DNA of 63,664 nucleotides, the filler included, from Dugesia japonica (taxonomy: Eukaryota), in the NCBI GenBank assembly GCA_001938525.1. It is 6 parts of 6 records of this genome, joined end to end, with 100 filler letters (N's around TTAATTAATTAA, not from the genome) between each part and the next. Parts side by side here need not be neighbours in the genome. Positions count along the whole stretch, not along the records: positions 32,270 to 41,690 come from MQRL01624195.1; 5 more parts are not named here. One strand, given 5' to 3'. The translations under genes and the position numbers were made by a program. Shown here piece by piece: positions 2,412 through 46,733 of the stretch. Below the pieces are notes generated by a model. The model saw only the letters and a list, made by a program, of their open reading frames with translations. It was not told the DNA's origin and ran no database searches. Position 1 is the first letter of the stretch; every line of letters starts with the position of its first letter.

Positions 2412-2930
2412 ATGGAAGATTTGTCTTATTATGAAAATTTGCTGGATGAAATTGTAAAAGCTTTGTCAATAGACCCAGATAATGACGAACTAATTGAACA
2501 GAAACAAAATATTGAGGAATTATTAACTTTATCCAAAGAAATTGAAGAACCAATCTGGAAAATAGGTGATGGTTGTCAAGCTCTTTGGCAAGATAATAAT
2601 TATTACAATGGTGTTGTTATTGATACTTTTATTGATGGTACTTGTAAAGTTCAATTTGATAGGCACAATGACAAAATTATTTGCGATTTAAAGTCACTCA
2701 GACCAAAAATGGATGAAGAAAAACTTGGTAATAAAATTCGACAGAGAAAAAGGCAGAAAAATAAAGAAGCCTATATGGAAGGTAGATCGAAAATCAAACA
2801 AGCTAGAACGGAAATGATCAGAGAAGTTGATGAAATGTGTGAGGCTGAGCGAAAAAATTGGAAAAATTTCAAGACTAAAATACATAAGAAAGAAAGGAGG
2901 TTAGCGCAAATGAAAAAAGAAACCAAATAA
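2412..2930 (+). CDS. SMNDC1: Survival motor neuron domain-containing protein 1 / splicing factor SPF30-like Tudor protein, intronless, 172 aa
   Basis: N-terminal LSYYENLLDEIVKALSIDPDNDELIEQKQNIEELLTL matches the SPF30 N-terminal coil. Tudor domain WKIGDGCQALWQDNNYY..GTCKVQF is present, followed by a basic coil and ERKNWKNF. AATAAA lies downstream. Confidence 0.85.
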   Translation: MEDLSYYENLLDEIVKALSIDPDNDELIEQKQNIEELLTLSKEIEEPIWKIGDGCQALWQDNNYYNGVVIDTFIDGTCKVQFDRHNDKIICDLKSLRPKMDEEKLGNKIRQRKRQKNKEAYMEGRSKIKQARTEMIREVDEMCEAERKNWKNFKTKIHKKERRLAQMKKETK

Positions 2931-4879: not shown

Positions 4880-5948
4880 AAATAGTGTTGCCAACACTAA
4901 AAAATAATATTTGATTGGATGCCAGCTTAGTAACAAGNGATCAACTGCTTTAAATAAAGATAGCCATCTAGTAGGACTATATCGAACCACTTCACAAAAT
5001 TCTGATTCGTAAAAATCGTAACATTATTTCAAATTTGCTAGTTTTTTGGCTTAATTAGAAAACTCAGCAAACACTTTCAATATAACGTTTTCAATATCAA
5101 AGGATAATAATTTCAAAGCATTTATAGCATAATTATGAATTATATGATCATTGCAATGAGCTACAATAATGGATTTATTTTCTTCATTCACTAGTCTGAA
5201 AAACCGAATTGTTTACTTCGTAATTTACGCTAACGTTATCAGCTCCATATGCATTTACATTGTTCCAAATTAATCCGTTCTCATTTAATACTCGACAGAG
5301 CTGATTTTTAATCGATCTTGAATCTTAGAAAACATCTTCATAGAAATTTAATATTTTAAAACTCAAACCATTCTGTAGCGAATAAAATTGTATGACTACA
5401 TGAAATAACTTAGGATTACTTTTATTCGACGTGTCAGGAGAAATAGAAAATGTTACGTTATTTTTGAAATCTTCTATCACAAGTTCAATTGAAAAGGGGT
5501 ACACAATATTTTGTACAACTGCCGAAGCTTTAGTACGTCCATGTGTAACATTTTTAGCGATTTCAGAATCAAAAAATGCCTGTTTTATAATTTTAATTCT
5601 GCATTTTTTAGCCAAGTATGATAGATGGTGCTTTACACTATGATAGATATGCAATAATTCAGCAATAGCAAATGCATCGTTTTGGGAACTATCTTGCGAT
5701 GAAAATAATGATTTTAATCTTTGAGAAGAAGCTGCAGCAGTTTCAGCTTCAATGTGTTTTTTTAAGTTTGCGTGTTGAGTTAGGGCTTTAATGTCATCAT
5801 ACATAACAGTAAAAGTTATATTACAAAGTTTGCACCTTGCTTTACTGTTTGAGTTTTCATTTCCAACATTTCCTTCGCTGACCCAATTATATATTTTCTT
5901 GCCAATCTGCATTGTAATTGCGCTTCCTTCTTTTTGGTATGGAACCAC
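4880..5948 (-). mobile_element. hAT transposase remnant with BED zinc finger
   Basis: ARCKLC...HANLKKH BED finger; FSISPDTSN; downstream frames YGADN, AHCNDHIIHN, PTRWLSL. Confidence 0.8.
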
Positions 5949-7893: not shown

Positions 7894-9960
7894 TGTAACA
7901 TTTATTAAATTTAAAGAAGATAATGTTCAAGAAAGTAAAACAATGATAACCTTGATTTTAATATTTAAACCCATTATTATTAATAATATTTTCTCACATC
8001 GCCCTTTTTAGAGCCTTTTTAAGTTTTTCCACGTTTCGTATTATTTTCTCTCCATCTTGGCCCTTTAACACATACTGTCTATCATGGATCAGTTCCACCA
8101 CCTAATACGGTCTATCATATCGGTCTTGTCCTTTGTTTCGTGTCTCTTTTCTTACTAACACTTCGTCCCCTATCTGATATTGCCTCTTTGTCTTTATTTC
8201 TTTTCTTTGTTTCCTGACTCTTGCCCGTTCCTCATGTACTCTTCCACCCCTCTCAGCTAATTTGTCGACCGAACAACATTTCCGCTGGACTCTTCTTCGT
8301 CATCTTTTGTTTAGTTGCATTCATTGCCATTTCGATTTCTGGGACTAATGTTGCCTAATCCACTGTTCCCCTCTATCGCATTGCAGCATTCATAGAATAT
8401 CTTACTGTAAGGAACTGCCTTTCAATTTGTATATCATTTTTGTGAGGATATGGGCTTGTCATTCGCCACACGATGGTTATTTTTTCTACAAAGTCTTTCA
8501 TTTCTTGCGCCTCAAATACTCTAGCACAATCTGATCGAATCTCTCTAGGACATCCAAACTTTAAGATTCACTGTTTCCAAATGTTTTCTTGAATTGTGTT
8601 TTCATCCTCTCTTCTCAATGCTTTTAATTTGATATATTTAGTGTCTTGGTATGTACCGTTTATTTCCTTTTGTTATTTTTATCGCTCCACAGATGTTTAC
8701 GAAATTAACCTCGAACGGTTTGTACTTTGCTGACCAGGATGTGACCTCTGTCGTGTCCGTTGTGTTAACTTTTACTTTTTGGCACCACATAATTGTCCGT
8801 ACCAACTTTCTCGTTTTTTTTCTCAATTGGTCTCCCGTGTATCTAGTACATATGTAGTCCTTTGTTTTCTATGCCCCCGTGTGACATAGAAATTTGTGGA
8901 TCTCCCATATTATTTTTTATCCATCTCATTTAGTGTTAGCCAAGTTTTGGTTTTCTCTCCAGTGTCTTTTTCTCTCTAAATATCTCCCATTTTGATCTGT
9001 GCTACATGATTTTTTAACAATTTAGTCTCGGGTTTCTCTGATTTTGCATCTGTGTGCTCCATCTGGCAATGAGTACATCTATCACACTGTAATCTGCTTA
9101 ATGTGTCTGCGTTCCCATATCGTATATCTTTCCTGTATTATAAACTAAATGTTTAGGCTGCTTAAGAAGTTAATTCATGTTTGAAATTGTCCTGTAATTG
9201 TTTTATGTCTTCAGCATAAATGTGATAGCCTTGTGGTCTGTTTTTAGCGTAAATTGTCTCCCATTTAATAATGCTTGAAATGTAAGCGGAAATAATAAAC
9301 CACTAGTAACTCCTTACTCGTTGTACAATATTTCTGTTCGTGTCTGGACATCGCATCTGATCCGTAAACAATTACCTGTTCCACCCCGCGCTCATCTTCC
9401 TTTGATAATACTGCACCGATTGTGTTGAAACTTGCATTCGTATTCAGGATAAATTCTCTCCGCATATCTAAAAGTACCAACACTGGTGCTGTTGTTAGTG
9501 CTGCCTTCAATCCTATGAATATTTGAGATAGTTCTGTGAACCACACCAGCTTTGAATTTCCCAGACCACTGCACAGCTCTTCTAGTTTCCTCGCTTTTAT
9601 TGCATAATCTTTTATGAATAATCTTTTATCTCTCTTTTCATAAAATTACACTTTTCCGGATTAATTTTCAAATTCGCTTCTAAGATCCTGTGCAGGATGT
9701 TTCCTATCGTCTATTAATGATCCTCTTTAGTTTTCGAAAAGATTAATATATCGTCTAGATAAATCATCGTTCTTTTTACCCCTTTCGTCACTTTGCCATG
9801 ATTTCATGGAATTTCTCTGGTGCTGCTGCTATACCAAATGGCATTCTCGTAAAACAGTATTGCTGTTGCTTTGAAGAGAATGCGATTTTTTCCTGTGAAT
9901 CTTCTCCTAGTTCCACTTGATAATATGCATTCCCTAGATCGATTGCGCTAAAATATGTTG
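7894..9960 (-). mobile_element. Ty3/Gypsy element 3' portion: RT, RNase H, integrase, PPT and a short 3' LTR (7894-7998)
   Basis: YFSAIDLGNAYYQV, RMPFGIAAAP, FILNTNASFNTIGAVL, KELL..VYY, FGCPREIRSD. Purine tract aaaaagggcga precedes a TG...CA 105-bp LTR containing AATAAA. Confidence 0.85.
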
Positions 9961-10099
9961 TAACTCTATGATCAAATCAGAAATCTTTTTCTTAATTTAA
10001 AATTAAAATTTTCAACTAAAACATTTCTAACACTTGCGATTTATATTAATTAGTTATTTTCACATTTTTTTTACAATTAACATTTTTACAATTTAACAC

Positions 10100-10680: not shown

Positions 10681-11356
10681 AAGATCTACAATAAATTATG
10701 TTTATTAATTCTTAAACTATTTTTTAACTTTTGCATAAAAATTTAATATTCCTTATTCACACTTTTCATAATTTTTTTCTTTTAATTTTTAAGATTTCCA
10801 ACCAAAGCACAAAAATTTAAAACCGATTTTCGAAACATACTCACAACACTAAATAATTAAAAAAATTAAATCTTATTCTATATTTAAGAAAGTGTTCCTC
10901 CAGAATTATTATTCTTCTGAAGTGCTCCTTGATTTGAAAGGTTTAGGAACCACTGGACTAAACCATGATATATTTAGTGAGTAAAGAATTTTCTGTTAAC
11001 TAGTTTTGTTATTTATTTGGTACAGCTTTAACTAGAATTGAATAAATATCATTTATATATAACACCTACTATTCAGCAATTTCTCGGTTTAGTAAAACAA
11101 CACCACACCTAAGAATTTTACAAATGATTAAGTGCCACAAAACTCAAATGAAAGCTCCCTTAAAAGATAAATTGAATTGAAGTAAATCTCGAATAGGTTA
11201 AGTTAATGGAAAGCTCCATATTCCCATGTTGAATTCCTATTGTATTAAATAGAAATAATATTAAATAGAAATAAATTAAAGTTTAATGAGAAAATGAATA
11301 AGAAAATAATAAGAAATAAAAGAAATATTAATCTATGAAATGATCAGGAAATTATT

Positions 11357-27394: not shown

Positions 27395-28320
27395 TTACAA
27401 CCCACTGCAGTTGATTCCAATTAAATCATGGAGAGATGGCAATCAAATAATTTCCAAAAATAACAGTAATCCGCTCTGATCTATTAAAATCTCCTTGATT
27501 ATAGTGGCAGCCAAATTTGTGTGACTAGACTGTATAAGAGTGGAAAATCTTTCTTTTCGTTGAGTCTGTACGTTATACAGAAGTTTTTCTCTTATTTAAC
27601 CTGTAAAAATCGCCAAACATCACTAAGCTTGAACAGTTGAGATTCCTATCATTAGTAGTGGTGTGACTAATTGATATTATCTACTTTAGTCAGATTACCT
27701 GCCTATACACACATATATGAAATTAAACCAGTAAGCACACACTCCAATAAGTGAGACCAAGATACTCCGTTTAAACAATATCACTAAGCAACCATAACAG
27801 GCAGAAATTCATAATTAGAAAGAAATTAAAAATAATATTAATTCTCACTTTTGTGCTTTTGTTATAAGTTTTGTTGATTTTACTGATGAACATTAATGCT
27901 ATAACGGGTATAATAACCAGAGTGGCAGGAATTTGGCCACTAATAGTAATAATAGCGTTTTGGGGAAATAGGTGTCCACTTGTTAGAGTAATTCGGTGAG
28001 TTGAATAAAAAATTGGGCTGATTACCATTCCGAAATAAGATTGGTAATACTATCAGATGCGACACCCACGATATGGTCATGCGTTCATGGGCCATAACCG
28101 GTATCTTTATCACGAATATTATTATGTAAAGAAAATTATTTTGATACATACTTTAGTGGTGATAGCCACTATCATTTTATACTAGAATTAACATTATCCT
28201 CACAACCAGGTTGCGATAATCCTAGGTCATGATTCCCCTTTGATAACTACCTTCCTATGATATGACACCCATCAAATAACAAGCTGTTATAATAATTTGC
28301 TCCGGGGAATTAAGTCAGCC
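27395..28320 (-). pseudogene. Antisense multi-pass membrane protein pseudogene inside element copy 1
   Basis: About 7-8 hydrophobic segments across frameshifts (e.g. ISWVSHLIVLPILF.MVISPIFY, IITISGQIPATLVIIPVIALMFI, INIIFNFFLIMNFCLLWLL, SILVSLIGVCAYWFNFIYVCIG). Minus-strand AATAAA follows the stop. Confidence 0.5.
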
Positions 28321-28357
28321 GGAAGAAAACGTAACTAACCATTTTCTCCTTTAGCTC

Positions 28358-28537
28358 ATGCCAACCGAATTAGATCATGCATTGCGTTGGATAAAAAAGC
28401 ACCGCCAGACTAGCCGGCTCAAACAGTTGCTAGGCCACTTTCTCACCAAGGGAAAAATTGAACACCCGGACGAGACGGACCTGTGCTGTCTCGCCGAGAT
28501 GTTCCACTTGGAAAGGAAAATAGATCGGGATGAGTGA
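28358..28537 (+). CDS. Cassette ORF2, 59 aa (MPTELDHALRWIKKHRQTSRLKQLL...GKIEHPDETDLCCLAE), unknown function
   Basis: ACTAAC branch point and ttttctcctttag acceptor upstream; homologous to 38104-38307 (GKIEHPDETDLSCLAE). Confidence 0.7.
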   Translation: MPTELDHALRWIKKHRQTSRLKQLLGHFLTKGKIEHPDETDLCCLAEMFHLERKIDRDE

Positions 28538-28672
28538 TGACAATTATTTAATGATAATTATCTGATAAAATGATTTTTTTAAAATAAAATTCTGTATAGT
28601 GTGGCATTTAAGTGTTTCCTGNATTTATATAATGTGCTAATTGAGTTTACTATTATTTCGTCATTCTTAGAA

Positions 28673-29020
28673 ATGGAATCAATATGGGAGCGAGTCTTGG
28701 ATAGGCGAACCCGTCGAATAATTTTCCAACGGCACCACAATGCCTACACTCGAGATGCCGGGATCCTGGTAGATCGATCGAATCTACATCCCGTCGAAGC
28801 AGATGTGACTCGTATTCAGGACTATGGAAAGCAACTAAACTATCGCCAGTGGAGTGGTCCGGAGCGTCGCCACGCCACTCCATTCCGGTAACTACCTCCA
28901 GCTCCAACACCGGTAGTTCAAGCCTTTATAGCTAATATGCTTTGTGGCGTTAGAGAACCGTCCCTGGTGGCGGATGTGGAAAATACAGTTCTCCCTGATA
29001 CTACCACTCCCGATTCGTGA
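28673..29020 (+). pseudogene. Cassette ORF3, ~115 aa with one internal stop (28889), unknown function
   Basis: Acceptor ttcttag|; MESIWERVLDRRTRRIIF...PVEADVTRIQ...W.GP.R.H.TPF...VQAFIANML..VREP conserved with copy 2; AATAAA at 29055. Confidence 0.7.
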
Positions 29021-29211
29021 TTTTACTCATAATCATAAAATTTGTGTTTCTTTGAATAAATAAGTGTCTTAAACAGTGTTAATATGCTCTTTAGCCCTTG
29101 GGAGGATTACTTTTAATATTGGTATTTGGTGTTTTTATGTTTTGAGTAGAGTTGAACAGATATTAGAGGATTAATCAGAGAGTCGATAACTCTTATGATA
29201 TTTTCTTTTAG

Positions 29212-29570
29212 TGCATTCATCATTAAATCGTCCCCCAGCTCCAACCAAGAAAATCNGAGANACTAGCGAGGACCGCNAAATGACGTGGGACCTCTACCGA
29301 CTCGCCAAACGACGTTGGGAGGCAGAAGTGGCCACTGCGAATAGTAAAGTCCTCCGTTATAAGAAGAAATGTGTTCTTTTTAGGAATGAAGCGGAGGCCT
29401 CCCATTTACAGGAGCGCACTTGGAAAAAACAAGTAGAATCTTTTTCAGAGATCATCCGGTCCAGCCATGACCAAGAAAATAAACTGGTTAATGACAATTT
29501 GATTTTCCGAGAGAAAATCCCCCTCGAACCGCTAATGATCGACAAAGGTACTCAGACGAGTCGCTCATAG
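29212..29570 (+). CDS. Cassette ORF4 exon (begins ag|TG): coiled-coil protein with a C-terminal DKGTQT motif
   Basis: Open frame HSSLNR.PAPTKK...TWDLYRLAKRRWE...ENKLVND...PLEPLMIDKGTQTSRS; homologous to 38989-39339. Confidence 0.75.
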
Positions 29571-29694
29571 CTTAATATTGCATAATGGATTGAATTAGTA
29601 AATTATTTAATTGTATGAAAATATTTTCTTTGTTATTTGTTTTTCCCGCGTTGTAGCTTAGGTGTTCATTAAATTGATTATACTTTTTCTTTAG

Positions 29695-30077
29695 TGCCTC
29701 GAATCACGTTTCCTACCAGTCTAAGAAAGTGCCACCGCATCTTACGCCGTCTGTTATTAGAGCGCCACGTAAAACGCAAAGCATACCAAGCTCTTCTTAA
29801 GCATCTTGACCAAAGGAACCAACTCATAAAAAAATTGGATTTGGTATTCCGTAAGCAAAACGACTTGGCAATCCAAACCAAAGCCCTAGAGGCTGATACC
29901 AGGAAGTTACTATTACGAAAGATAGATTTTTTAAAGCAGTACATAGCGGATCTCTCCAGACAGATTGGGAATCCGGCCTGGATTCATTGGAACGATGACG
30001 ACGATGTCTCCGCCTTCAATTTTACAATTGACGACCCCGAGCAATGGCTAGACCCTAGCGTATTAAATGAGCTGTAA
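29695..30077 (+). CDS. Cassette ORF5 exon (begins ag|TG): basic region, coiled coil and acidic/aromatic tail
   Basis: Intact 127-codon frame; homologous to 39466-39849 with many third-position changes; AATAAA at 30088. Confidence 0.78.
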
Positions 30078-30134
30078 ATGTTATATTAATAAATGTTCCA
30101 AGAAGTATTTGATTTAAAATTTTGTGTAAGTCAA

Positions 30135-30322
30135 GGGAAAACCTTTGAACCCGAATACAAAGGTTTGTGGGCGTGCACCTCCCATTAAGGGAGAGGTCAA
30201 CCGCCCTAACTGAATGCCTACCCTAAGGGCGGTAGGTTAAATTCTTGGACGGGTTCCCCTGAGGGCTGTTTTTTTCCCTAGCCACTTTTTTATTATTCTC
30301 CGACTCAGGTGGAATCCCAACA
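30135..30322 (+). other. Conserved structured 3' terminal (U5-like) region of element copy 1
   Basis: Stacked hairpins conserved with 39909-40093, including compensatory substitutions. Confidence 0.7.
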
Positions 30323-32269: not shown

Positions 32270-34120
32270 TTTTATGAAACATAGGTGGGACGTTGGTAAA
32301 ACGAATTTATTGAGACATGAAATCATTACTTCGGGTAAACCAAGTGCATTGAATCCTAGAAGACAACCTGCACATTTGATTGAAAAAAATGATGAGCAGA
32401 TCAAAGAAATGGAATTATGTGAGAAAGAAATGGAAAGAATGTGAATCACCGTGGAATACACCATTAGTCTGTTTCAAAAAAAAGAATAAGGAAGAAATAA
32501 GAATATGTTTAGACTTTAGAACTCTTAATACTGTGGCAGAAAGACCAATATTTCCGATGCCTAACATGAATGAATTACTAGATGTTTTAAATGGCGCTAA
32601 ATATTTCTCGACTATTTATTTAGGTAACGCGTATTATCAAGTGGAGCTTGAAGAAGATTAAAAATTGAAAACAGCCTTCTCCACGAAAAATAAACAATAT
32701 GTTTTCAACAGGATGCCATTTGGTATTGCAGAAGCACCTGGAACATTCCAGAAACTTATGAATACAGTTNNNNNNNNNNNNNNNNNNNNNNNNNNNNNNN
32801 NNNNNNNNNNNNNNNNNNNTCCGATGCCTAACATGAATTAATTACTAGATGTTTTAAATGGCGCTAAATATTTCTCGACTATTGATTTAGGTAGTGCGTA
32901 TAATCAAGTGGAGCTTGAAGAAAATTCAAAATTGAAAACAGCCTTCTCCACGAAAAATAAACAATGTTGTTTCAACGGAATGCCATTTGGTATTGCAGCA
33001 GCACCTGGAACATTCCAGAAACTTATGAATAAAGTTCTTGGAGAATTGAATTGGAAAGAGGCAGTTGTCTACCTAGATGACATACTCCTATTTTCGAAAA
33101 CATTAGATAAATATTATCAATTCATAGAAAAAGTATTCCAGAAGATACAACAATCAGGTTTAAAAATTAGTCAATCTAAATGTCATTTTAAGGAAAATTA
33201 TATCAAATTTGTCGGCCATATCATAAGTAAAAATGGGATAGAAACTGATCCAAAGAAAAGAAAAGCTATTAAAGAATTTGAAAGACCAAATGATTAAAGA
33301 AATTACGCAGTTTTTTGGGTTTAGCAAACTATTACAGAAAGTCTATTTATGAATAAACAAAATACGCAAAACCTTTGAAAAGTTTATGTGGAAGTAATCA
33401 AAAGAAATTAATCTGGACTGAAGAATGTGAAAAAAGCTTCCAAAGTTTAAAATATATATTAAACTCTATTCCAGTGTTGGCATATCCAGATTTCAAGAAA
33501 ACCTTCATACTAAATACAGATGCTAGCTTTGGCAGAATTGGAGCTGTATTATCACAGTTACAAGATGATGGTATAGAAAGAGTTATCGCATACCGATCAC
33601 ATGCAATGAGCAAGCATGAATTGGGTTACTACATAACCAGAAAAGGGTTATTAGCTATATATTTCTTTACAAATCAATTCAAACATTACCTGTGTGGAAA
33701 ACGATTTATGTTACGGACAGATCATAAAACTATTACATTTATGATTAAAACAAAAAAACCACTTACACCTCAACTCCAAACGTGGATGAATTGTTTAAGT
33801 GGCTTAGATATTGATATACAATACCGAAAAGGAGAACTACATAGAAATGCAGAAGCGATGTCAAGAAGTGCATGTCCGTCATGTTTGCAATGCCAAATGA
33901 TACAACCAGACCCAAAATGTGGTAACTTAAAGACAAAGATATCAGCTATGATGACTGATGAGAAAGTAAATATTTAGCTAAATGATTCAATGGAAATTAA
34001 TGATATTATAAATGATAAAATCAAAACAATCAATAAGACAAAATTTAAAATTGATAATGATGTTGTAAAGACTATTCTTAATAAAATATGGATACCTGAG
34101 GGTAAAAGAGAAAAATTTAA
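32270..34120 (+). mobile_element. Ty3/Gypsy pol remnant (RT and RNase H)
   Basis: IRICLDFRTLN, MPFGIAAAPGTFQ, YLDD, ILNTDASFGRIGAVL, LRTDHK; similar to the 7894-9960 family. Confidence 0.92.
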
Positions 34121-35319
34121 TTTAACATAATTTAATTTATTATATTCAATTTGATTGTATCAGAAAAATTGAATTCTAAGTTTTGTTTCTTATTTGTAAT
34201 AATAATAGTAGTAATAATAATAGTAATAACCTATTATAAAGTTCAAATCTAAAATGTAACATTGAATTTATAAATATTCAACTTTGGAACTATAAATATT
34301 TTATCATAATTATTAAGTCATAATTACATTTATTATTATATAAAGTACATTATTGATAAAATTCAATTTGTTAACGTTGTTAATATTAAATTAAAAGGTT
34401 TCATTCATAAAATTCATCTATATTTGTTTAAAGTTCAAATTATTTGTTATAAGTTCAAAGCTAATATGTAACATTTGAATTATAAAGATTCAACTTAGAA
34501 AAATAAATATTATATCATAAATTTTATTATGTTACCATAGTATTATTATGATGGAGAAGTATACTATTAATATTTAAACTACGGCAGTCATAATTTAATT
34601 TCATTATTTAATATTTATTTCAATAAAAATGAACATCAAAATTGATGAATTGGAAAAAAGGTATGTTTTTTTTATTTATTTAATTTGTTATTTAAGTTTA
34701 AATTTAATTAGTATTGCAAGCATCAAAAGGAATAATTTTAGAATCGGAAAGATGTAATGAAGAAAAAGTAGAAAAGAAGTATTTTTAAAAATTATAATTT
34801 ATCATTTAAAAGTATTATGCAAAGGTTTTCTATATCAGACAAACTTTTGAAAATGGAAACAATGATCGAAGATGAAGTTAGCGGAAAAAAGTATTTGTTT
34901 TGTTTTTTTTGAAATATATAATTCTTATTTTATTATTAATATAGAAAAAGGATTCAATAAACATAAATGATGAAAATAAAGAATAGTATTTTTATTATTT
35001 TTAATTTTCATATTATTTTGTTAATATTTTGGTTATTATGAATTACTGTAAATCTTAAATTAATTATCATTTTTAATATTATTAAATATTAATGATGTTT
35101 TATTTGTATAATTATTAAAGTAAGCAAGAATAATAGCAATAAGGATTAAACTGATAATGATAGCAATTATATTTATAGTATAACAATAATTAAATTATTA
35201 TTTTCATAGGTGATATAAGTTTAAAAGTTGTTTTTTTAATATGATTATTTAAATCATAGCATATGAAGAAATAATAGTGATGGTATTATTAATAATAATG
35301 ATAAATGTTTCGATAATCA

Positions 35320-36746
35320 GTGTTTTCCGTCAAGGAAACAGAAACAGCATCTAGATTTTGAAATGTTGAACTCGAGTTTTTTAACTACCATTATATTGTT
35401 CACCACTTTGGAATGTAACCAAATTCAAGTTAGGTAATCGACGATCACCAAAGATTTGTTCCATATAAAATGATGAACTATCTTTACTAATTGCAAATGC
35501 AACGAATTTTTTGGTTCTTATTGGATAAACAGAATTGTTTGCTTTAGTACTATTTGATGAGCAGTTAGTACTGAGGGTTCAACGCGAACACATCTAACCA
35601 TTAATTTTGCATCTAGTAATACATATTTAGGTTCATTAACTGCAGATTCCAAACAAATATTAGCATCTGTTCGTTTCAATCGCATAGGAACATTGACCCC
35701 TGGAATAAGGTATTTTGGTTGATCTATGAAATCGAGTTGCAATGAACCGCATAGGGATAATTGTTTTGATTTTGCAATAGACTCTTTTCTATCTGATTCT
35801 GATCCATATCACATTGCTGTAAGACATATATTTTTACTATCATGATTATAATTTATTATAGTTTAAATCAATGGTTTGTGAAGATAAGATCCATTCCACC
35901 TTTAGTTTTGAAATTATTAAACGAAAGAATTACATCCTTAAAAAGCGTATGCAACATACAGTTTAATAAGAATTGAATCATCCGTATCAGTAAAATCTTT
36001 ACCATCCTTATCAACTACCTTTACTGTAGTATACAATAAAGTATCATTCAAATCCAAATATTCTATTTGAGATCCATTTATAAAAAACTCTACATCGCTG
36101 TGTGATGCAGAAATTGAATTCATAGGAAAAAAATAGGCAACAGTATCATTTTCAATTACAGTTTGTGAAGATGGTCAATTAAAAATACATAATTCAGTTT
36201 TACCGCAAATCATTTTTCAAATATTGTTTCATGTCCTCTCATTCGTTTGTATATACGTGATGCATGTGATTTTTTATGTTTTTATTAGTTGGTTCTGTTT
36301 TGGGTTGATTTTTTAGCATATTAGTTATTTCAGATGGTATTTTATTAGTTTCAACTTTGTTGTAATATACCAGCTACTTTTGGATTCATAGACTAAGCAA
36401 ATCTCCCTAGTGTTTGTAACCACCCAGATTCAAACTGTTTTCCAAGAAAGTAAGGTGATTCTTCATCTGCTTGACTAGTACTATACAATAATACAATATC
36501 AGGGTTCATTATTAATTTTATTGAAATGTAACGTTAAATATGTTACTGAATCTTCAGCAAAGTTGACTAGTTTTCCACTATCATCACGTAAATTTATTTC
36601 TATATTGTTTATATATGACGAAGAAATACGTAAATACGTAAATGATCAACAATTATTTGAACTACTTCATCATTCATATGCTCCTCTATCTATACTGCTT
36701 CCATATAAAGGAACATTAACATCCCAACAATTATATATCTACAACA
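35320..36746 (-). mobile_element. Polinton/Maverick (adintovirus-like) virion module remnant: minor capsid C-terminus, small adjacent gene, major capsid (hexon-like) N-terminal part
   Basis: Penton-type IVG.VNVPL...IEINLRDDSGKLVNFAEDSVTYLTLHF; MNP...PYFLGKQFESGWLQTLGRFA; capsid CGKTELCIF..P..QT.IE...VEFFINGSQIEYLDLNDTLLY...LQLDFIDQPKYLIPGVNV. Confidence 0.82.
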
Positions 36747-37193
36747 ATATTATTGGGGTGAAATACCCGGTCATCAAAACGACAAAACCAAGAGATACAA
36801 TTTACAAAGTATTGCAAATGGGCAAGGATTAATAGCGGTGGTTGAAGGAATACAACGATCAAGGTCGCAGAAAAATAGTAAGAAAAGTGGGTACGGAAAA
36901 TCATGAAAGACTAAATTATGTCGAAATAATTGCTAAAGGAGGAAAATATCAAGGGCCAAGCCTAAACGTTTGGACAATCAAAAGAATTAATTATCAAAAC
37001 GTTAATTAATTTTGAACAAAAAATAAATTAAAATAAAGCCAAAATCAGTTTTTCGCTAATAATTCTTCTCAGAAGAGCCATAAAACCTTGTGGCAAGAAA
37101 AATTAGTAAGAGAAATACTATGGCTAACGGGATCTCACAGCAAGAAAATAACATCTCCATTGGGAAGTTCTCTGCAAGGGTTCAAAGATTGGG

Positions 37194-37394
37194 CCAATTA
37201 CAGTCAAGAAAAGAAAATAGAACAAAGATAGAAAGATCACATAAGCATCTAAAAATAAGCACCAATAAGGAACTAAAATTTGCAGAAAATTCTAAGAAAA
37301 TTGGCATTAGAACCAATAAGAAACAGAAAATTCAAATCTAAATTAGTAGCCAATAGTAATGATGCCGGGATGCATATAGAAAATGCTATATAAA
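37194..37394 (+). promoter_or_regulatory. Promoter of element copy 2
   Basis: CCAAT at 37194, 37262, 37313 and 37350; tgatgccgggatgcatatagaaaatgcTATATAAA. Confidence 0.75.
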
Positions 37395-38103
37395 CTTTAT
37401 GAAAATTAGAAGAAAAAACAACACTTTTTCAAATTTTATAAACGTCTGAGAATTTCTGCAAAATTTCTCCAGTTACTATTGGCAGTATTACTAAAACCAA
37501 AATCTACTCACTTCATAATATCCAACAGAGAATTCAGCATTGTCTAGTGGTGAATTATTGTATAAATAACTAAAATTATCAAGTGACTTTAGGAGAATAA
37601 AATTTTCAGTTATCAACCAAGAAGAAAACGGAATCCAACCCAGTTTCTTTCACATTATTATTCTCGTTGCTGATAAGCGAAACTATTAGTAAGTGAAATG
37701 TTTCTCATTATTTGGTATGAATGATTTACATGATTATAATAATAAATATTCTAAACTTAAACGTTATTTTAATGTCTCTCTACAGTTATGTGTGATCATT
37801 AAGATAGGAGTATAAAATTTATTCACTAAATTGGAATGAATAAATCAAATATGGTTGATCTGTTTATAGTATGAATGACAAACGTTGGAATCCGCTCTCA
37901 CCAGGACACTCATTGAAATTGGTATCATAAATTCTGATGTAATGCGACAAACCAATTGTGTGTAAGAATAAATTGCTAAAGTTCAAATATCGTGTGATCT
38001 TACTCTTTACATGCAATTATCCAAGGTTATCAGGTCAAGCGTCATTAAACTTTAATCGCTGATTGTATGACTAAGTAGAACTCATGATAATTTATAATTT
38101 AAG

Positions 38104-38307
38104 ATGATTCAGAACATGTCAACGGAATTAAGTCATATATTAAGGAAGATTCGAAAACAAAGGAAAGCCACCCAATTAAAACAATTAATCGCGGACATCT
38201 TACCTCGTGGTAAGATAGAGCATCCGGATGAAACAGACCTGAGCTGTCTTGCCGAGTTGCTCACACTAAAACCCCAGGTGGATATAGACTCAAAGATCGA
38301 AAGTTGA
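38104..38307 (+). CDS. Cassette ORF2, copy 2
   Basis: MSTELSHILRKIRKQRKATQLKQLI...GKIEHPDETDLSCLAE; AG immediately upstream. Confidence 0.7.
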   Translation: MIQNMSTELSHILRKIRKQRKATQLKQLIADILPRGKIEHPDETDLSCLAELLTLKPQVDIDSKIES

Positions 38308-38407
38308 TGTTCATCATTATTATTTTAATATATCGTCAATTTGAATTATAGTTGTTCGTATTTTTGATTATGGTTAATTATTTCCCCTTTTTTATCATTT
38401 TAGCACC

Positions 38408-38716
38408 ATGAATATCATATGGTAAAGAATTTACGATCCACGAACACGACGTATGATTTTCCGACGACATATTAACCCATACAATAGTAATGCGAGCATT
38501 CTTTCGGACCAATCAAAATTACCTCCTGTGGAGGCTATGGTGACCCGTATTCAAAATTTCAGGGAAAGACAAAACCACCCAAATTGGACTGGTCCGGTTC
38601 GTAACCATGTAACCCCCTTCAGTTATTAGCATTTGGCTCCATCCCAAGCAGTACAAGCTTTTATTTCAAACTTGCTCTTTAGTGTTAGGGAACCCAAGGG
38701 TGTAGAAAACTCGTAA
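38408..38716 (+). pseudogene. Cassette ORF3, copy 2 (two nonsense changes)
   Basis: ttttag|caccATG; MNIIW*RIYDPRTRRMIF...PVEAMVTRIQ...WTGPVRNHVTPF...VQAFISNLLFSVREP. Confidence 0.7.
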
Positions 38717-38988
38717 AATCAAGACCCAGCATCCAACATAGAGCTCGACCAGTAATGGTCGAAACCAACTAAGATTACTCTTTTTGTTGAATAGAACTTT
38801 TATATACTCTAATAATATGTAGTTATAGTTCTGTTTTAGTCTTCCGTCAATTATTATTATTTTGTTTCTCTTTGAGAAAAATATAGTTGATAAATTTCGT
38901 GGTGTTATTCCAGTATGGAAATATTGAGATTTTCTTTTTGTGTCCGTTTATTTTCTTTATGAATTTGGTTTATCGTTTCACATTCTAG

Positions 38989-39339
38989 TGCACTCATCAT
39001 TGAATCGCGCTATAGCACCGACCAAGAAAATGCGAGAGTCCAGTGATAAGTCCGAAATTACGTGGGACCTCTATAAATTGGCTAAACAACGCTGGGAGCC
39101 AGTACAGCATCCGCTGAAGCCAAGGTTTGCCGCTAAAAAAAGAAGTGTTTGGCTTTTAAAGCCGAGGCTGAAGCGTCGTATAAGCAGGAAAGAGTATGGA
39201 AAGCCCAAATAGAGTCTTTCACAGAAACTATCCGGTCCTACGTGAGAATAAACTGGTCAATGACATTTTGAACTTAAAAACAGCAATGCCCCTCGAGCCT
39301 TTGATGGTTGACAAGTGCAGTCAAACCTCTCGGTCATGA
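38989..39339 (+). pseudogene. Cassette ORF4 exon, copy 2 (frameshifted)
   Basis: ctag|TG CAC TCA TCA; TWDLYKLAKQRWE; ends PLEPLMVDKCSQTSRS. Confidence 0.72.
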
Positions 39340-39465
39340 TATCAATCGACTTCTTAAATAAATTTTTTATTTATGTAATTAAATTCTTCTTCCAGATTTA
39401 TTTGATTAGTTGATATTTCAGCTCTTTTTAAATTAATGAAATAGTTAATAATTTGCCTTATTTAG

Positions 39466-39849
39466 TGCCCTACATCACTTTTCCAAACAGTTTGAAAAGA
39501 TGCCATCGAATAATGCGCTGCCTCTTAATCGAGAGACACTTGAAACGTAAAGCCGATCAAGCTATCCTTAAACATCTTGCCTAACAAGATAAATTGATAA
39601 AGAAAGCTTGATCTCATCATTAAGAAACAAAGCGAGCTGGCTGTTCAAACAAAGGCCCTTGAAGAAGAAACTAAGCAATTGTTACAAAGAAAGATCGACT
39701 TCCTGAAACAGTATATCTCGGATCTTTCTCACCTGCTAGGCAACCCTGCTTGAGTACAGTGGGATGATAGCGCCGATATGGCCACCTTTGATTTTTTGGT
39801 GACTAACCCAGCCCAGTGGTTAGATCCTGGAGTTTTGGAGGAGTTATAG
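39466..39849 (+). pseudogene. Cassette ORF5 exon, copy 2 (stops and a frameshift)
   Basis: ttag|TG CCC TAC; ITFPNSLKRCHRI...RKIDFLKQYISDLS..GNPA...QWLDPGVLEEL. Confidence 0.75.
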
Positions 39850-41690
39850 TTGTCATTATAATAGATGTTTCTTCTTAACTTCTGTTTAATTTATTGTCTA
39901 TGCTTATAAGGGAAACCGATGAACCCACATTAAAGGTGTACGAGTGTGCACCTCCCATGAAGTAGGAGGTCAACCACTTTACGCTGAATACCTAAACTAG
40001 GGACTTTAGGTTAAATTCTTAAAAGGGTCCCTTGAGGGCTGTTTTTTCCCCAGCCATCCATTTTCGATACCAAACTCAGGCAGGACCCCAACAATATTAT
40101 TTTATTATAATTTGGTTCAAAAAATTTTAATCAATATTTTATTTTGTTAATTTGTGATATGATTTAACTTATTGTAAATTATTTAATTAATTAATTAACA
40201 CAGATAAGCAAACGGAAAATTTGGTAAATTTTTAAATTTTCATTTTAGATTTTATAAATATGAAAATTAAAATTGTAATAATAAAAATTTTAAATATTTT
40301 GATTTCAGTGGAAGATTTTAATTAAAAAATGAATATCGAACAACAATAATTATTTTTGTAAAGTTTATTTGTTTGGCCATATTAATTCATATGCATTTAT
40401 GTACCTGGTAGCAATATAGAATAAATACTATTGAATTTTATTGTATTTTCACCCTTAAAAAAATTTGCTTTAAAAGTTTTAACCTACTTGGGTTAAACCT
40501 GAAGTGAATAAATAAAAAAATGTCTATTACTCTTTTAGTTAATTTGTTCAAATAAAATTTAGAAAAGTAATAATTATTTGATTTTAATAGCTGACTATAT
40601 AACTTATTTATAATAATATTAATTATTTATAGTAATGATATTGAGATATAAGGTCTTTATAAAACGATAATATATAAGTAAAACCGTTGAATTGTATTAT
40701 AATTTAAAATCATTTCAATTGCTGATTTGCTTTGGCAACAATCCCCAAAGCATCTCAACATATATTTCACAAAATAAAACTCTTATTTTCCCTTTTGAAA
40801 CCATATTAAACCCCAAATTGTAACCGACTTAATCCTTTATCTAATGAAATAAATCATAACTTATTATTATTATCATAACATATTAAAATATTACGTAATC
40901 ATCCAATAAATTAAACCAAGTCTCATTATTGATATTCAAAACCTATTACATAAATAATAAAAAGAAATAAAATAAGGAAAAAATGGGTAAAATAGGACAA
41001 AACAGCTTTAACGTATAAAGTAGTGAAAATGACTTGAAAATAGGAAATTGACACAAAAAATTGGTCCAATAAAATAAGCTATGAGTAATTATTATTATCA
41101 TTTGAAAATTAATACATGAATATAAAGAAAATATGATTAAATACGTTAAAATATAAGAAAATCAGCAAAATAGACCAACATCGTGTAAATGGAGCTGTGA
41201 GATATGACTAAGAATAATATAATATTTTCATATTGGCCTTTATATAAGTAAATTGACATATGTATGTGATAATATGTTTCTAAAGGTTTTTTTTCTGAGT
41301 TCCTCTATATTGCTATCAATTTATATAATAGAATAATTGTACCTTGGTATCACCATTCTAAATGATTGTTTTTACTTCCCCTTTGAGGAAAGAATTGAGG
41401 AATTATCTAATATTTTGTATGTTGTGTTTTCTTGTCTGTGTAATTGACATTTGAAACTGTAAATGAAAGCTTAGATTATTGCAATAATGGAAGAATCAGA
41501 AGCTACTGAATTTGCAGGAATATAGCTTGGTCATATATTTAATAATTCAATTTTTCTGTCAGTAAATGTATATTCTGTTAAGTTTTAGTAAGGAAAAACA
41601 TTTGTAATGTTTATAACATCTGAATGTATATTTATTTTCATTTTGATTTTCTCTTCTGTTTTAGTTTTCTCAAAAAGTAGATTTTTCAAT

Positions 41691-41807: not shown

Positions 41808-42157
41808 ACATATGTCGTAATGATGGTACTGAGTTTACTTATATGGGAAAATTAAATACAACAATTAGTGGATATATTTGCCAAAAATGGAGTTCACAAC
41901 AACCCCATAAACATCAATATACGTTAAATTGGCAATTTCTTGATGGAAATATTTTAAAAGCCGAAAACTTTTGCAGAAACCCATTTAAAAAAAAAGAAGG
42001 CTTTAGATTTCCTGAAAGTAAATCATGGTGTTACACTACTAATCCAAATGTTAGGTATGATTATTGTGATCCCCCTTTATGCACAAATCAAGTAAATCAT
42101 TTAATTTTATTTATTTTGGTGAATACTTTTATTATTTAGGTTACGTACTATGATTAA
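41808..42157 (+). CDS. 3' end of a kringle-domain gene; exons 41808-42091 and 42140-42157 (5' part lies off the contig)
   Basis: Six-Cys kringle C...Y.G..NTT.SG..CQKW..Q.PH.H...NFCRNP...WCYT.NP.VRYDYCD.P.C; 48-nt intron, then VTYYD*, then AATAAA. Confidence 0.88.
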
Positions 42158-43439
42158 CGGTGATAATTGTGAATAAATATGATTGAAAATAAATAAAACG
42201 TACTATATAAACGTTTATCGATTTGATTGCAGCTTTTGTTTATTGTTTTGAGAAATTTCCTGAGCTTAACATTTTTTAAAAATATTTATTTTAAACGATT
42301 ATAAGTTGAATCATAAAAATTAATTTTAACTGAAATTTAAAATTAATATAAAAGCAAGCAATATAACTAGTTAACTAAATCAAGGGTTACCAATTTTTTT
42401 TGCTCACCTACCACCTAATAACCAAAATAAATTAGCGAACCACCTACTTTTTCTTTGCCTAAAAATACCTTTGTAAAAGATGTGAATTGTTGTTCTGTAT
42501 ACTTAAATGTTATACAAGACAACCTTTGCAATAAAAGCTTAATTTTTTAAACTAAAAGCAGGTGAAAACATTTTTTTAAATAGAGCTTTATGTAACTTTT
42601 TCAAATTTGAAAATGACACAAACAATGATTCGAATATCAAATTNNNNNNNNNNNNNNNNNNNNNNNNNNNNNNNNNNNNNNNNNNNNNNNNACATTGCAG
42701 AGAATTCAGTCTCACACAAGTATAATGTACTGAAAGGCAAAATTTCAAAGCCTTTCCAGATATTAAGGCATATTCATTTCTTCTTTTCAGCCAAAAATTG
42801 CTTAACTTTTCTTTCTTGAATTCATTTTGGAGTCTCCCATCATATGACATCTCTAAATATTCTTCTCTTTCTTCAATTGACAAATCGTCAATTTCTTCAG
42901 TTAAAAATGGGTTCCTGGTGCCGTTTTTACTTGAGAACTTTTCGGGAAAGTATTATATTTATTAAAATTCTGAATCAATTGATAGATCTGTTCTTTTATA
43001 TCAGAAATCAATTGAGGCTGTAATAAAATAAATTTCTCTGGCAAAAACTCTTCTAGAGATGGAAATGTATCAGTTCTGTTTTGTTCCAAATCTTTCAAAA
43101 TTGNNNNNNNNNNNNNNNNNNNNNNNNNNNNNNNNNNNNNNNNNNNNNNNNNNNNNNNNNNNNNNNNNNNNNNNNNNNNNNNNNNNNNNNNNNNNNNNNN
43201 NNNNNNNNNNNNNNNNNNNNNNNNNNNNNNNNNNNNNNNNNNNNNNNNNNNNNNNNNNNNNNNNNNNNNNNNNNNNNNNNNNNNNNNNNNNNNNNNNNNN
43301 NNNNNNNNNNNNNNNNNNNNNNNNNNNNNNNNNNNNNNNNNNNNNNNNNNNNNNNNNNNNNNNNNNNNNNNNNNNNNNNNNNNNNNNTTTACTTGGTGAA
43401 GATTTCGACGAATTACTTTCATTCTATCATCTAATTCTA

Positions 43440-46085
43440 AATTATAATTACTGAGAAACTTGCTTATCCTGTGTATCTTTTTTAAGTAACCATCTTTCTT
43501 CTGTTTTTACTATTACCCAATCTTCAATATTTAATGTAGTGTTCTGATTTTCTGCTTTATTTTCTTTTGGAATCTGTTTTCTCTTTTCTGTAATTCTCTC
43601 CCTTTGTTTTTTAAAGTTATTCTGAAAATCCATCTTGTCGATTTCTACATTTGCAGTCAAAATATCTGGTTTCAAATCCATCTTTTTACCAAATAGAATT
43701 TCAAAAGATGAGACCTCCAATTTTTTGTTATTTGATGATCTCATACTTAGTTGAACAAAATAAATTGCTTTAACCCATGCTTGGTTATGTGACTTACAAG
43801 ATACATATAATTTGTCTTTGACTGTTCTAAATACGCGTTCTACAAGCCCATTACCCTGATGATAATATGTTGCTTTATTTGTAATTTATTACACAATTCC
43901 TTCATTGTTTCCGATTTAAATTGTGTTCTGTTATCAGAATGAACTATCCTCGGAATCCCAAAGTACGCTATCTATCTTTCAAATATCATTTCAGTAACTG
44001 TCTTTGCAGAAATATTCTTCAATGGTATTAACACTATATATCTAGAAAAAACATCGATGATTCCTAAAATATATGAATATCCCTTGCAATTTGGTAGTGG
44101 TCCCGTTATATCGCAACATATCCTTTCAAATGGTTCTGTCGCTGTAAAAGAATTTTTCATATTGTAACCCATTTTATTTCCCTGCTTTCTCTCAGCACAT
44201 GACATACAATTTGCCACAAACTTCTCTGTATCTTTTTCCATGTTTATCCATTCATGATATCTCTTGATATTAGTCAAAGTTTGTTTAGCGTTTGGATAAC
44301 CTAATCGACAGTGAAAATATTTTAAAATGTTATTGATTTTCTTTTCATTATACTCTTTATGGGTATCTATTAATTCATTGATTTGTCGATAACCTTCATC
44401 ATCTNNNNNNNNNNNNNNNNNNNNNNNNNNNNNNNNNNNNNNNNNNNNNNNNNNGTCGATATGTTTTATTTCACATTGTTCACATTGGAAATCTCTGGAA
44501 AGTGCATCTGCGTTTGAATGTAATTGTCCTTTTCGATGCTGATTTCAAAATCATACATTAGTTCATCAATCCAGGAGCAGTACTGTGATGTATTTGATCT
44601 TTTCCAATTAAAGATCCATGTTAAACTCTTATGGTCTGGGCGAATAAAAAATTTCTTCCCCAATAAATAATGCTTGTATTTCTTCACAAAGAAATAAACC
44701 GCCATGAGTTCTTTCTTGGTGATCCAAAATATTTTTCTGCTTTCGAAAACTTCTGAAATNCATAGCATATTACTTTTTCTTCGTTATCTTGAACTTGATT
44801 TAAAACTGCTCCCATAGCAAAGTGACTAGCATCTGTATCCAATACGAAAATATCATTCCTATTTAGAAACGATAATACTGGTGCGCTTGTGAGAGCATGT
44901 TTTAGACTTTCGAAAGATTCCTTATGAAATTCTTCCCATTTTTCCATTTTTTCCATTTTTCTTGATGTTCGCATCTCTTAACAAATCTTCTAGAGCTTTA
45001 AAAATTTTGGCATATCCCCAAATAAATCTTCTATAATAATTGCAAAACCCAAGCAAACTTGATAATTCTTCATTTGTATTAGGAATACTCCAATTTTGTA
45101 CTGTACTAATTTTATCTGGATCAGTTGTCTCCCCTTCGCTTGATATTATGTGACCTAAATATTATTTGGAAAATATTTAAAAAAACGCATTTCTTGGAAT
45201 ATAACTTAACTGATGACTGTCGTATCTTATCTAACACTGTGTTTATTCTTTCATTGCGTTCCTCTATGCTTTTCCCGAAAATCAAAATATCATTGAGATA
45301 TTTTATGCATTTATGGAAATTTCTTCTCTGAGAACTAAGTGCATTAATCTTTGAAAAGTTGCTGGCGCTCCACACAGTCCAAAAGCCATGCAATTTAATT
45401 CGTACTGACCATTTCATGTAGCAAAAGCTTTTTTTCTCTGTCTTTGTCACTTATTTCTACCTTGTAATAACCACTAGATAAATCAAGTGCACTAAAGAAT
45501 CTTGATCCCACAAGTGAATCAAATAACTGTTGGTTATCTGGAATAGAATTTATATATCTGTTATTAACTGAGTTTAATTTTCTATAGTCTATATATAACC
45601 TAATGTCTTCAGATTTCTTTTGAACCACCAAAATAGTTAAAGACCACGGACTCTCGCGTATGATTCCCTTTTGTTCAAGTTCTTTGATAATCTCATCGAT
45701 TTTACTTTCTAGATGAAGGGAGCTCTTCGTAATGGTTGAGCAAAAGGTTTAGGATCAATGACATCTATTTCGTGTTTTAAAATTGACAATGTCCGATATC
45801 ATAATTATCTTTACTAAATAAATCTTTAAATTCATTTATTATCTTTATTACAGTATTTTTCGCATTTTTAGCGATATCAGCTGAATGTCTGTTCATAATC
45901 GTTTCCATTATTCATTGGATATACCCCATCTCGGTATCTTGATATATTCTATTAATATTTCAAATATTATCTTCTGTATCATCTCCAATCTCAATACAAC
46001 CTATTCTTGTATTTCTAAACATTTTAATTTCTTTATTTTTTAAGTTAATTATTTTTACTGGGATTTTACCAGTTCTTCTAACATA
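43440..46085 (-). mobile_element. Ty3/Gypsy pol (RT, RNase H, integrase) nested in the hAT
   Basis: RLYIDYRKLN, FSALDLSSGY, VLDTDASHFAMGAVL, H..C..C zinc finger, DITGPLP, IDVFSRY. Confidence 0.9.
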
Positions 46086-46733
46086 ATACACACTAATTTT
46101 TTTAAATATTTCATTTGCTGTGGTATGGCTTAAGAGTGGCTTACAAAACAGGAACTCTTCCTCAATTGATTCTCTAACTTCATACTTAATATAAGTCATA
46201 AGCTGAGCAAAATTGGTAACATCTATTCTCTCATCTAATTGAAGTGAAAAGAATTTGCTCTTTTTAACATAGTTCGCTAGTTTCTCTTTAATCTGTTCTG
46301 TCATTTCTTGAATTCGTCGACGACTATGTTGTTAGATAAAGAAATAACATTGAGTTTTTGGCTGCTTCTTTTCCAAAAATACATGAAACCATGTTTTTAG
46401 CAGCTGGGACTATCAATGTTTCGCCAATTGTGTGAGGTTTTCCATTTTGAGCTATTCTTAAACTTACAAGATATGAAGCTTATAATTCTCTTGCATTAAT
46501 TCCTGTAACATAGATCATTGATTTAACTTCAGTTTTCATATCACATTTCCTTCTTTGAAAAGATCCAATTGGTTTATCTTTTAAATGACCATTTCGATGT
46601 TCCAAATGCCGTCTAAGAAGAGAAGATTTTAATTAGCTGTTTGCTAACTTTTCATAACAAATAACACATTGTGGTTGAGGTTTGGTTTGGTCTTTACAAA
46701 TAAATCCTAGTGACAAATAGTTTTCATTGTACC

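Follow-up and report, generated by a model that had tools for sequence, protein, structure and literature searches.

Selected small genes inside a probable solo long terminal repeat of the planarian Dugesia japonica

Four small genes in two diverged copies of one unit

We analysed a 63,664-nt window of Dugesia japonica DNA (GCA_001938525.1), in which six parts are joined with 100 N between parts. Positions 32,270–41,690 come from MQRL01624195.1, adjacent parts need not be neighbours in the genome, and all coordinates run along the whole window. It holds two copies of a unit that is flanked by a target site duplication (TSD) and carries a series of short open reading frames (ORFs). Here we describe ORF2 to ORF5, which are kept by purifying selection, and consider the unit that carries them, probably a solo long terminal repeat (LTR). 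In a window-wide comparison copy 2 has one relative, copy 1, the two being about 65% alike over the best-aligned kilobase. The features are listed in Table 1.

Table 1. Features of the two copies and of the sequence adjoining copy 2
Feature	Position	Strand	Remarks
Copy 1 element, other subfamily	26009–30322	+	4314 bp; ends TGTTGGGG..TCCCAACA; TSD AATG
Copy 2 element	36751–40093	+	3343 bp; ends TATTGGGG..CCCCAACA; TSD ATAT
U3-like promoter region, copy 1	26009–26663	+	CCAAT 26464, 26533, 26621; TATA 26657
U3-like promoter region, copy 2	36751–37394	+	CCAAT 37194, 37262, 37313, 37350; TATA 37387
Predicted leader exon, copy 1	26682–27000	+	319 nt (6 N), no ATG; A before donor GTAAAT at 27001
Predicted leader exon, copy 2	37414–37688	+	275 nt, no ATG; A before donor GTAAGT at 37689
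ORF1 candidate	37871–37930 (copy 1: 27132–27242)	+	short, decayed; weak similarity only, z 1.9
Two extra hydrophobic micro-ORFs	27886–28185	+	37 and 42 aa; copy 1 only; second directly after AG
ORF2	38116–38307 (copy 1: 28358–28537)	+	63 aa, intact; copy 1 59 aa
ORF3	38408–38755 (copy 1: 28673–29020)	+	115 codons; stops 38423, 38627, 38714; copy 1 stop 28889
ORF4	38989–39339 (copy 1: 29212–29570)	+	~118 codons; stop 39134, two deletions; copy 1 open
ORF5	39466–39849 (copy 1: 29695–30077)	+	~126 codons; stops 39582, 39751; frameshift near 39602; copy 1 open, without Met in 126 codons
Conserved non-coding 3' tail, U5-like	39909–40093 (copy 1: 30135–30322)	+	75% identical, z 19
Polinton-like capsid remnant and probable penton end	35560–36750	-	outside the element; adjoins copy 2

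Selection was measured on gap-free codon blocks of ORF2–5, each ORF separately; after removal of every codon that contained a gap, an N or a stop, 400 remained for scoring. The pooled proportions of synonymous and nonsynonymous differences were 0.82 (pS) and 0.25 (pN), giving a pN/pS of 0.30 (bootstrap 0.26–0.36; 0.36 with a kappa of 2). For the single ORFs the ratio was 0.31 (ORF2), 0.38 (ORF3), 0.31 (ORF4) and 0.23 (ORF5), each with a Fisher p ≤ 3e-12. Over the same codons identity was 0.66, 0.79 and 0.41 at positions 1, 2 and 3, in agreement with the many third-position changes described in the initial annotation of this locus, and the ORF5 codons quoted there were found at 29697 (copy 1) and 39468 (copy 2). 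Shifted sense frames gave pN/pS values of 1.01 and 1.78 with 23–31 stops each; the antisense frame with common third positions gave 0.45, as expected. Four-fold sites were identical at 30 of 86 positions, with 0.26 expected at saturation, which places synonymous sites near saturation. Since dS, the corrected synonymous divergence, is saturated, the corrected ratio dN/dS is unstable and pN/pS is reported instead; where finite, dN/dS was 0.11–0.19 for whole ORFs. The codon alignment and dN/dS check suggested in the annotation, run on the two copies, thus gave a ratio far below 1, and the claim that the cassette ORFs were under purifying selection holds for each of ORF2–5.

The ORFs had also been described as aligning well and the spacers poorly. 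Against shuffled controls the ORFs reached z values of 11–26 and the spacers 2–3.5, which bears this out. Raw gapped identity, suggested earlier as a refuting test, is about equal in ORFs (0.61–0.67) and spacers (0.56–0.69). It is the wrong test, since AT-rich spacers reach 0.59–0.63 by chance; judged against shuffles, the ORFs stand far above expectation and the spacers barely so. The U3-like promoter region (z 16.8 against shuffles) and the 3' tail are conserved as well, so that selection extends beyond the ORFs. We conclude that ORF2–5 have been kept by strong purifying selection in two diverged subfamilies.

The copies differ in the extent of their decay. Six stops and three indels interrupt the ORFs of copy 2 and one stop those of copy 1; neutral change since selection ended amounts to about 8% (3–17%) and 1% (0–7%), respectively. 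Owing to this decay the true constraint is stronger than the one measured. Seven contigs from sequencing run X8, which make up all depth at 39582, lack the ORF5 stop of copy 2, and single contigs of the same run lack each of its three indels, supporting that copy 2 decayed after insertion.

The stops in ORF3 deserve separate consideration. The sequences TPFR*LP and TPFSY*H, quoted in the initial annotation from a reading frame of about 115 aa, are both present, their stops at 28889 and 38627 falling in adjacent codons of a gap-free 115-codon alignment with a shared final stop position. The 40 codons past these stops show a pN/pS of 0.44 (p 1e-5), which favours a single 115-aa ORF3 that was hit twice, and simple decay is in our view the quite probable explanation. 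A programmed stop near codon 73–74, yielding a 72-aa protein plus a read-through product, seems fairly unlikely. It would account for the finding that copy 1's only stop in about 400 codons adjoins one of copy 2's six (P ~0.04 under random decay) and for the C that follows both stops. The best gap-free alignment nevertheless sets the stops at different codons, and the similarly constrained codons downstream fit a single ORF with no extra assumptions. The earlier claim of independent decay after insertion therefore stands as regards the decay of copy 2 and the different codons; the adjacency of the stops, with its chance of about 4%, speaks against independence, which is still likely.

No Pfam family reached the cut-off in any of nine ORF readings, which gave sub-threshold matches alone. 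ORF2 is predicted to fold into three helices (predicted local distance difference test, pLDDT, 78.5), ORF5 into a single 84-residue helix plus an acidic tail (pLDDT 81.7). Fold searches with these two ORFs returned no PDB match at E ≤ 0.001, nor did ORF2 have one in BFVD. Compared with 1.84 billion representatives, an ORF2 profile found one match, the unnamed protein P0099 from Logan, an intact 60-aa relative of ORF2 that is 51% identical to copy 1. Searches with ORF5 and with the ORF3 alignment gave nothing at E ≤ 0.01 among 21 and 49 near-length candidates, respectively; the Atlas contained no usable match for ORF5, and ORF4 had no relative by Pfam and exact look-up, the only searches made with it. 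A metagenome scan with ORF2 yielded one locus (L001) among 50 candidates, which we rejected as an 8-residue chance match in a gene of 54% GC. By analogy with the protein CERV of Cer1 and the small ORFs (sORFs) of the MDG1 group, discussed below, the encoded proteins, which are small, basic and helical or coiled-coil, most likely serve the element as accessory regulators.

About 1 kb (27350–28340) is present only in copy 1; an X8 contig matches up to 27821. This stretch holds the two extra micro-ORFs, neither with a Pfam match, so that the array seems to vary between subfamilies. It also contains a 92-codon hydrophobic antisense frame (28049–27771). A captured receptor fragment in antisense orientation was considered for this kilobase and dropped, having no Pfam match.

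Ends, promoter and tail of the unit

The TSDs of the two copies lie in the same register, and their 4 bp fall within the 4–6 bp of LTR elements. The probability of a chance 4-mer match, calculated from local composition, is 0.008 for AATG and 0.014 for ATAT, the latter being the duplication that had already been assigned to copy 2. The inverted repeats at the ends are short, 7 bp in copy 1 (TG..CA) and 8/9 bp in copy 2 (TA..CA). Nine X8 contigs stop exactly at 26009 with mixed flanks (agreement 0.55), which points to a dispersed family whose 5' end is fixed. Over the first 650 bp the two copies are colinear, with a TATA box at +637 to +649 and three of copy 2's four CCAAT boxes present in copy 1. 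From these motifs the unit is predicted to contain an internal polymerase II promoter at the same offset in both copies.

At the other end, the last ~190 bp fold alike in both copies (z −2.0 and −1.6). In the central helices all 23 pairs are kept, four of them changed on both sides, a count reached in 26 of 500 shuffles. This is suggestive of hairpins kept by compensatory changes, in a comparison of two sequences from which the structure was itself derived. At the gathering score Rfam gave no match; the best hit, in copy 2, had an E of 0.28, and copy 1 had none. A resemblance to the pistol ribozyme was dropped, as it had no Rfam support. Summed X8 contig depth on 39982–40100 was about 1100, roughly ten times that on the ORFs; the tail may be common to many more subfamilies or to shorter elements.

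The short inverted ends, the TSDs, the promoter at a constant offset, the contig breaks at the 5' end, the lack of any Pfam family and the size together suggest the layout of a solo LTR. We regard it as probable, on these sequence features, that the unit is a gene-bearing solo LTR, likely one belonging to a large Ty3/Gypsy retrotransposon of the Burro-like kind. Recombination between two LTRs would have removed the internal region and left both copies solo. Against this, neither copy is joined in the window to a primer-binding site, a polypurine tract or gag-pol. Metagenome and viral contigs scanned by sequence pattern gave no case of the unit beside gag-pol. Each copy has several AATAAA signals, none of which is shared exactly at a position behind an ORF in the alignment. 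The poly(A) site is not fixed, and the genes may lie in R or U5. A pairing of the two copies as the LTRs of the intervening Gypsy pol remnant (32389–33977) was rejected, as they are only 65% alike and their TSDs differ.

That each copy is found by itself between its own 4-bp TSDs, with no internal region linked in the window, would also be expected of a non-autonomous cargo element that was moved whole, in trans, by an integrase-type (Ginger-like) transposase or by another element and that carried a selected cassette. Ginger terminal inverted repeats (TIRs) are tens to hundreds of bp long. The inverted ends of 7–9 bp found here fall short of these and of TIR transposons in general, where tens of bp or more are the rule, and the order of promoter, genes and structured tail between TG..CA ends is that of an LTR. 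Neither in the ORFs nor in the additional kilobase of copy 1 did any Pfam family, integrase or transposase included, reach the cut-off. We consider such a cargo element improbable and retain the solo LTR.

Splice sites and start codons

An acceptor-like YAG lies just upstream at all eight ORF heads, preceded in seven cases by a pyrimidine-rich run. The AG precedes the ATG by 3 nt in ORF2; in ORF3 the distance is 2 nt in copy 1 and 4 nt in copy 2. At the heads of ORF4 and ORF5 both copies read AG/TG, and the reading frame starts after the TG; the window-wide rate of TG after YAG is 0.054. The two copies of ORF4 have no ATG in common, and ORF5 of copy 1 contains no Met, yet ORF5 is the most constrained of the ORFs. 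The 19 scored ORF4 codons before the first ATG of copy 1 gave a pN/pS of 0.38 (p 0.015; 0.052 with a kappa of 2), so that codons upstream of this ATG look constrained as well.

In both copies, the best donor of the stretch from the TATA box to ORF1 comes directly after an A. No ATG occurs from TATA+25 to the donor, with shuffle P-values of 0.002 and 0.023; comparable ATG-free stretches made up 61 of 4283 and 93 of 4374 in the window. Transcription would start about 670 nt inside the unit, and a leader of about 300 nt, free of ATG, would end in A at a GT donor. This one leader would be spliced onto each ORF in turn; in copy 2 the predicted joints lead from 37688 to 38113, 38404, 38989 and 39466, and in copy 1 from 27000 to the corresponding places. 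ORF2 and ORF3 would then use their own ATG just past the acceptor, and ORF4 and ORF5 would gain an AUG across the splice junction, A/UG. Unspliced genomic RNA could not make ORF4 or ORF5 under this model, since the splice itself would write the start codon. Taken as a whole, a solo LTR with selected genes, a common leader and splice-made start codons is the reading that we somewhat favour.

Several points tell against the leader. Its bounds were set with the donors in view, which makes the ATG P-values generous, and the leader of copy 1 holds 6 N. The donors lie 344 and ~300 nt from the TATA box. A weak local alignment, equalled by 16 of 300 shuffles, pairs the donor of copy 1 with a site in copy 2 that is not GT and lies ~65 nt further on; the two donors may not be homologous. 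No joint between leader and acceptor and no read across a donor was found in the runs compared, namely X9, X10, X13 and X8 against copy 2 and X10, X11, X14 and X8 against copy 1 up to 29250, where X8 may be DNA. Coverage was thin, with 6–26% of each raw run read and 3–80 reads per run. None of the raw reads was ≥95% alike and nearly all fitted only in part, indicating that they stem from other family members or are chance matches. In X10 the first mates map mainly to the minus strand, in ORF2, ORF4, the tail and the TATA region. This corresponds to sense RNA in most stranded libraries and is weak evidence that relatives of the unit are transcribed. The only GT..AG joint found in the comparison with copy 2 (39314 to 39603, one contig) was discarded, having a poor acceptor and lying at the frameshift of copy 2, and RNA reads on 26172–26282 were not counted, since they match an A-rich stretch. 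No RNA data set was listed as containing copy 2, a result that says nothing about its expression.

The same acceptors might serve differently. Within a solo LTR with selected genes, ORF4 and ORF5 could follow, as 3' exons in phase 1, on a coding exon further upstream that belongs to ORF2, to ORF3 or to some gene beyond the LTR. Alternatively, they could start at a GTG overlapping the acceptor. A G/TG valine codon is also consistent with AG/TG, and the uncertain homology of the two donors fits an upstream coding exon. ORF2, ORF3 and ORF4, however, each close with a stop at matching or nearly matching places in the two copies, and some of the differences among the final ORF4 codons are synonymous, so that they look like complete genes. 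A coding exon upstream also leaves unexplained that ORF4 and ORF5, with no evident similarity to each other, both begin with TG at a rate of 0.054 each. We hold this explanation to be unlikely. Far less likely still is that the host resolves the array as an operon by spliced-leader trans-splicing, the terminal AUG of the leader serving as start. Spacers of 100–230 nt, AT-rich and ending in acceptors, would suit it, and flatworm leaders are described as ending in AUG (PMC12582326). Joined at AG/TG, however, a terminal AUG would set a frame other than that of ORF4 and ORF5 and run into a stop within a few codons. The frame of ORF3 is missed as well (offsets of 2 and 4 nt), and ORF2 alone fits.

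Surroundings and relation to known elements

To the left of copy 2 lies a Polinton-like remnant. The reading 35560–36213 (minus strand) matches 98 of 290 candidate proteins of ~406 aa, the best, an unnamed 406-aa protein, at E 2e-76 and 61% identity. This best match groups with a eukaryotic cluster, 30% of whose members carry the double-jelly-roll domain PF21738 (score 0.98). Judged by these matches, 35560–36213 is a decayed Polinton-like major capsid gene. The stretch 36500–36750 (minus strand) has no Pfam or NCBIfam match; from motifs and gene order we take it to be the terminal part of a probable penton gene. The earlier placement of copy 2 at the edge of a Polinton penton remnant is thus right as to the Polinton neighbour, its penton label finding no such match. 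The DNA to the right of copy 2 is not an obvious continuation of the remnant, which may have been truncated before copy 2 inserted.

Between the two copies lies a decayed Gypsy remnant with reverse transcriptase (RT) and RNase H (32280–33977, plus strand). Within it 217 nt are duplicated across an N gap (32553/32820), perhaps as a product of assembly. Decayed Gypsy pol with RNase H and integrase motifs is found at two further places, 43448–45417 and ~8000–10000 (both minus strand; RT motif at 9761). Exons at 22649–23450 (plus strand) presumably encode a trypsin-like protease (TAAHC 22838, GDSGGP 23353), and an exon at 41843–42139 (plus strand), 18 kb downstream of them, is presumably kringle-like. 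If these belong to one gene, both copies and the pol and Polinton remnants would lie in one intron of it, with the protease before the kringle. An intronless 172-aa ORF at 2412–2930 (plus strand), which we take to resemble a Tudor-domain splicing factor of the SPF30/SMNDC1 kind, was absent from the protein collection by exact look-up. ORF fragments at 5325–5912, 42539–43422 and 45960–46304 (all minus strand) presumably resemble hAT-type (ZBED/SCAND-like) transposases. Runs of masked N around a central TTAATTAATTA are repeated at 11352, 21250, 32165, 41690 and 55308 and are probably masking or scaffolding marks, not biology.

Among known elements the unit can be compared with the giant planarian Ty3/Gypsy elements Burro and GYPSM1, Burro having an internal region of up to 25 kb and a total above 30 kb (PMC6431247). 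These have multi-kb LTRs, as implied by their sizes, and accessory ORFs, and they reside in an AT-rich animal genome with Gypsy and Polinton remnants (PMC6431247). The accessory domains and ORFs described for them belong, in contrast, to the internal region and not to the LTR (PMC6431247); the likeness is one of description. Burro levels are described as rising under smedwi-2 RNAi, with piRNA silencing knocked down (PMC8532177). sORF1 and sORF2 of the Drosophila MDG1 group are also small accessory ORFs, located 5' of gag behind an LTR promoter, with a helical sORF1, and in that group early polyadenylation yields a short message (PMC11952523). By description, MDG1 has two ORFs upstream of gag and no splicing evidence (PMC11952523), whereas our unit has four or more within its TSD-bounded length, each behind an acceptor. 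CERV of the C. elegans element Cer1 is likewise a spliced accessory protein of an invertebrate Ty3/Gypsy element; it is a single protein (PMC10309623), and by analogy it offers a model of how proteins such as those of the present ORFs may act.

A start codon made by splicing is described for Drosophila gypsy env, where AT is joined to G (PMC2585583). It differs from the predicted A/TG in that AT/G serves one internal gene and not two genes in an LTR (PMC2585583). The major splice donor of foamy viruses lies inside the LTR (PMC3694450), and the sag gene of mouse mammary tumour virus (MMTV) is a protein gene encoded in an LTR (PMC11998498). Unlike in these vertebrate retroviruses, the genes described here form an array downstream of the promoter; sag is a single gene. 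The MMTV Sag gene is located in U3, upstream of the start site. LTR genes, small accessory ORFs and splice-made starts each have precedent. Our literature searches listed neither gene arrays within the LTRs of planarians nor an array of at least four selected micro-genes behind an LTR promoter; such arrays may be described in the primary Burro paper, in its supplements or in the Repbase entries.

Solo LTRs are usually taken as non-coding leftovers, and here at least four selected small genes, without a named relative, are found in what is probably one. As a tentative proposal that we hold somewhat short of probable, a lineage of invertebrate retrotransposons moved an accessory operon into its LTR, with an ATG-free leader spliced to 4–7 micro-genes, two of whose starts are written by the splice. 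If the leader model is true, gene finders would miss ORF4 and ORF5, since their start codon is not in the DNA, and invertebrate LTR elements would match complex retroviruses in accessory-gene complexity by a different layout. On the operon proposal, each solo LTR of this family would form a multi-gene expression unit in its own right, dispersed across the host genome.

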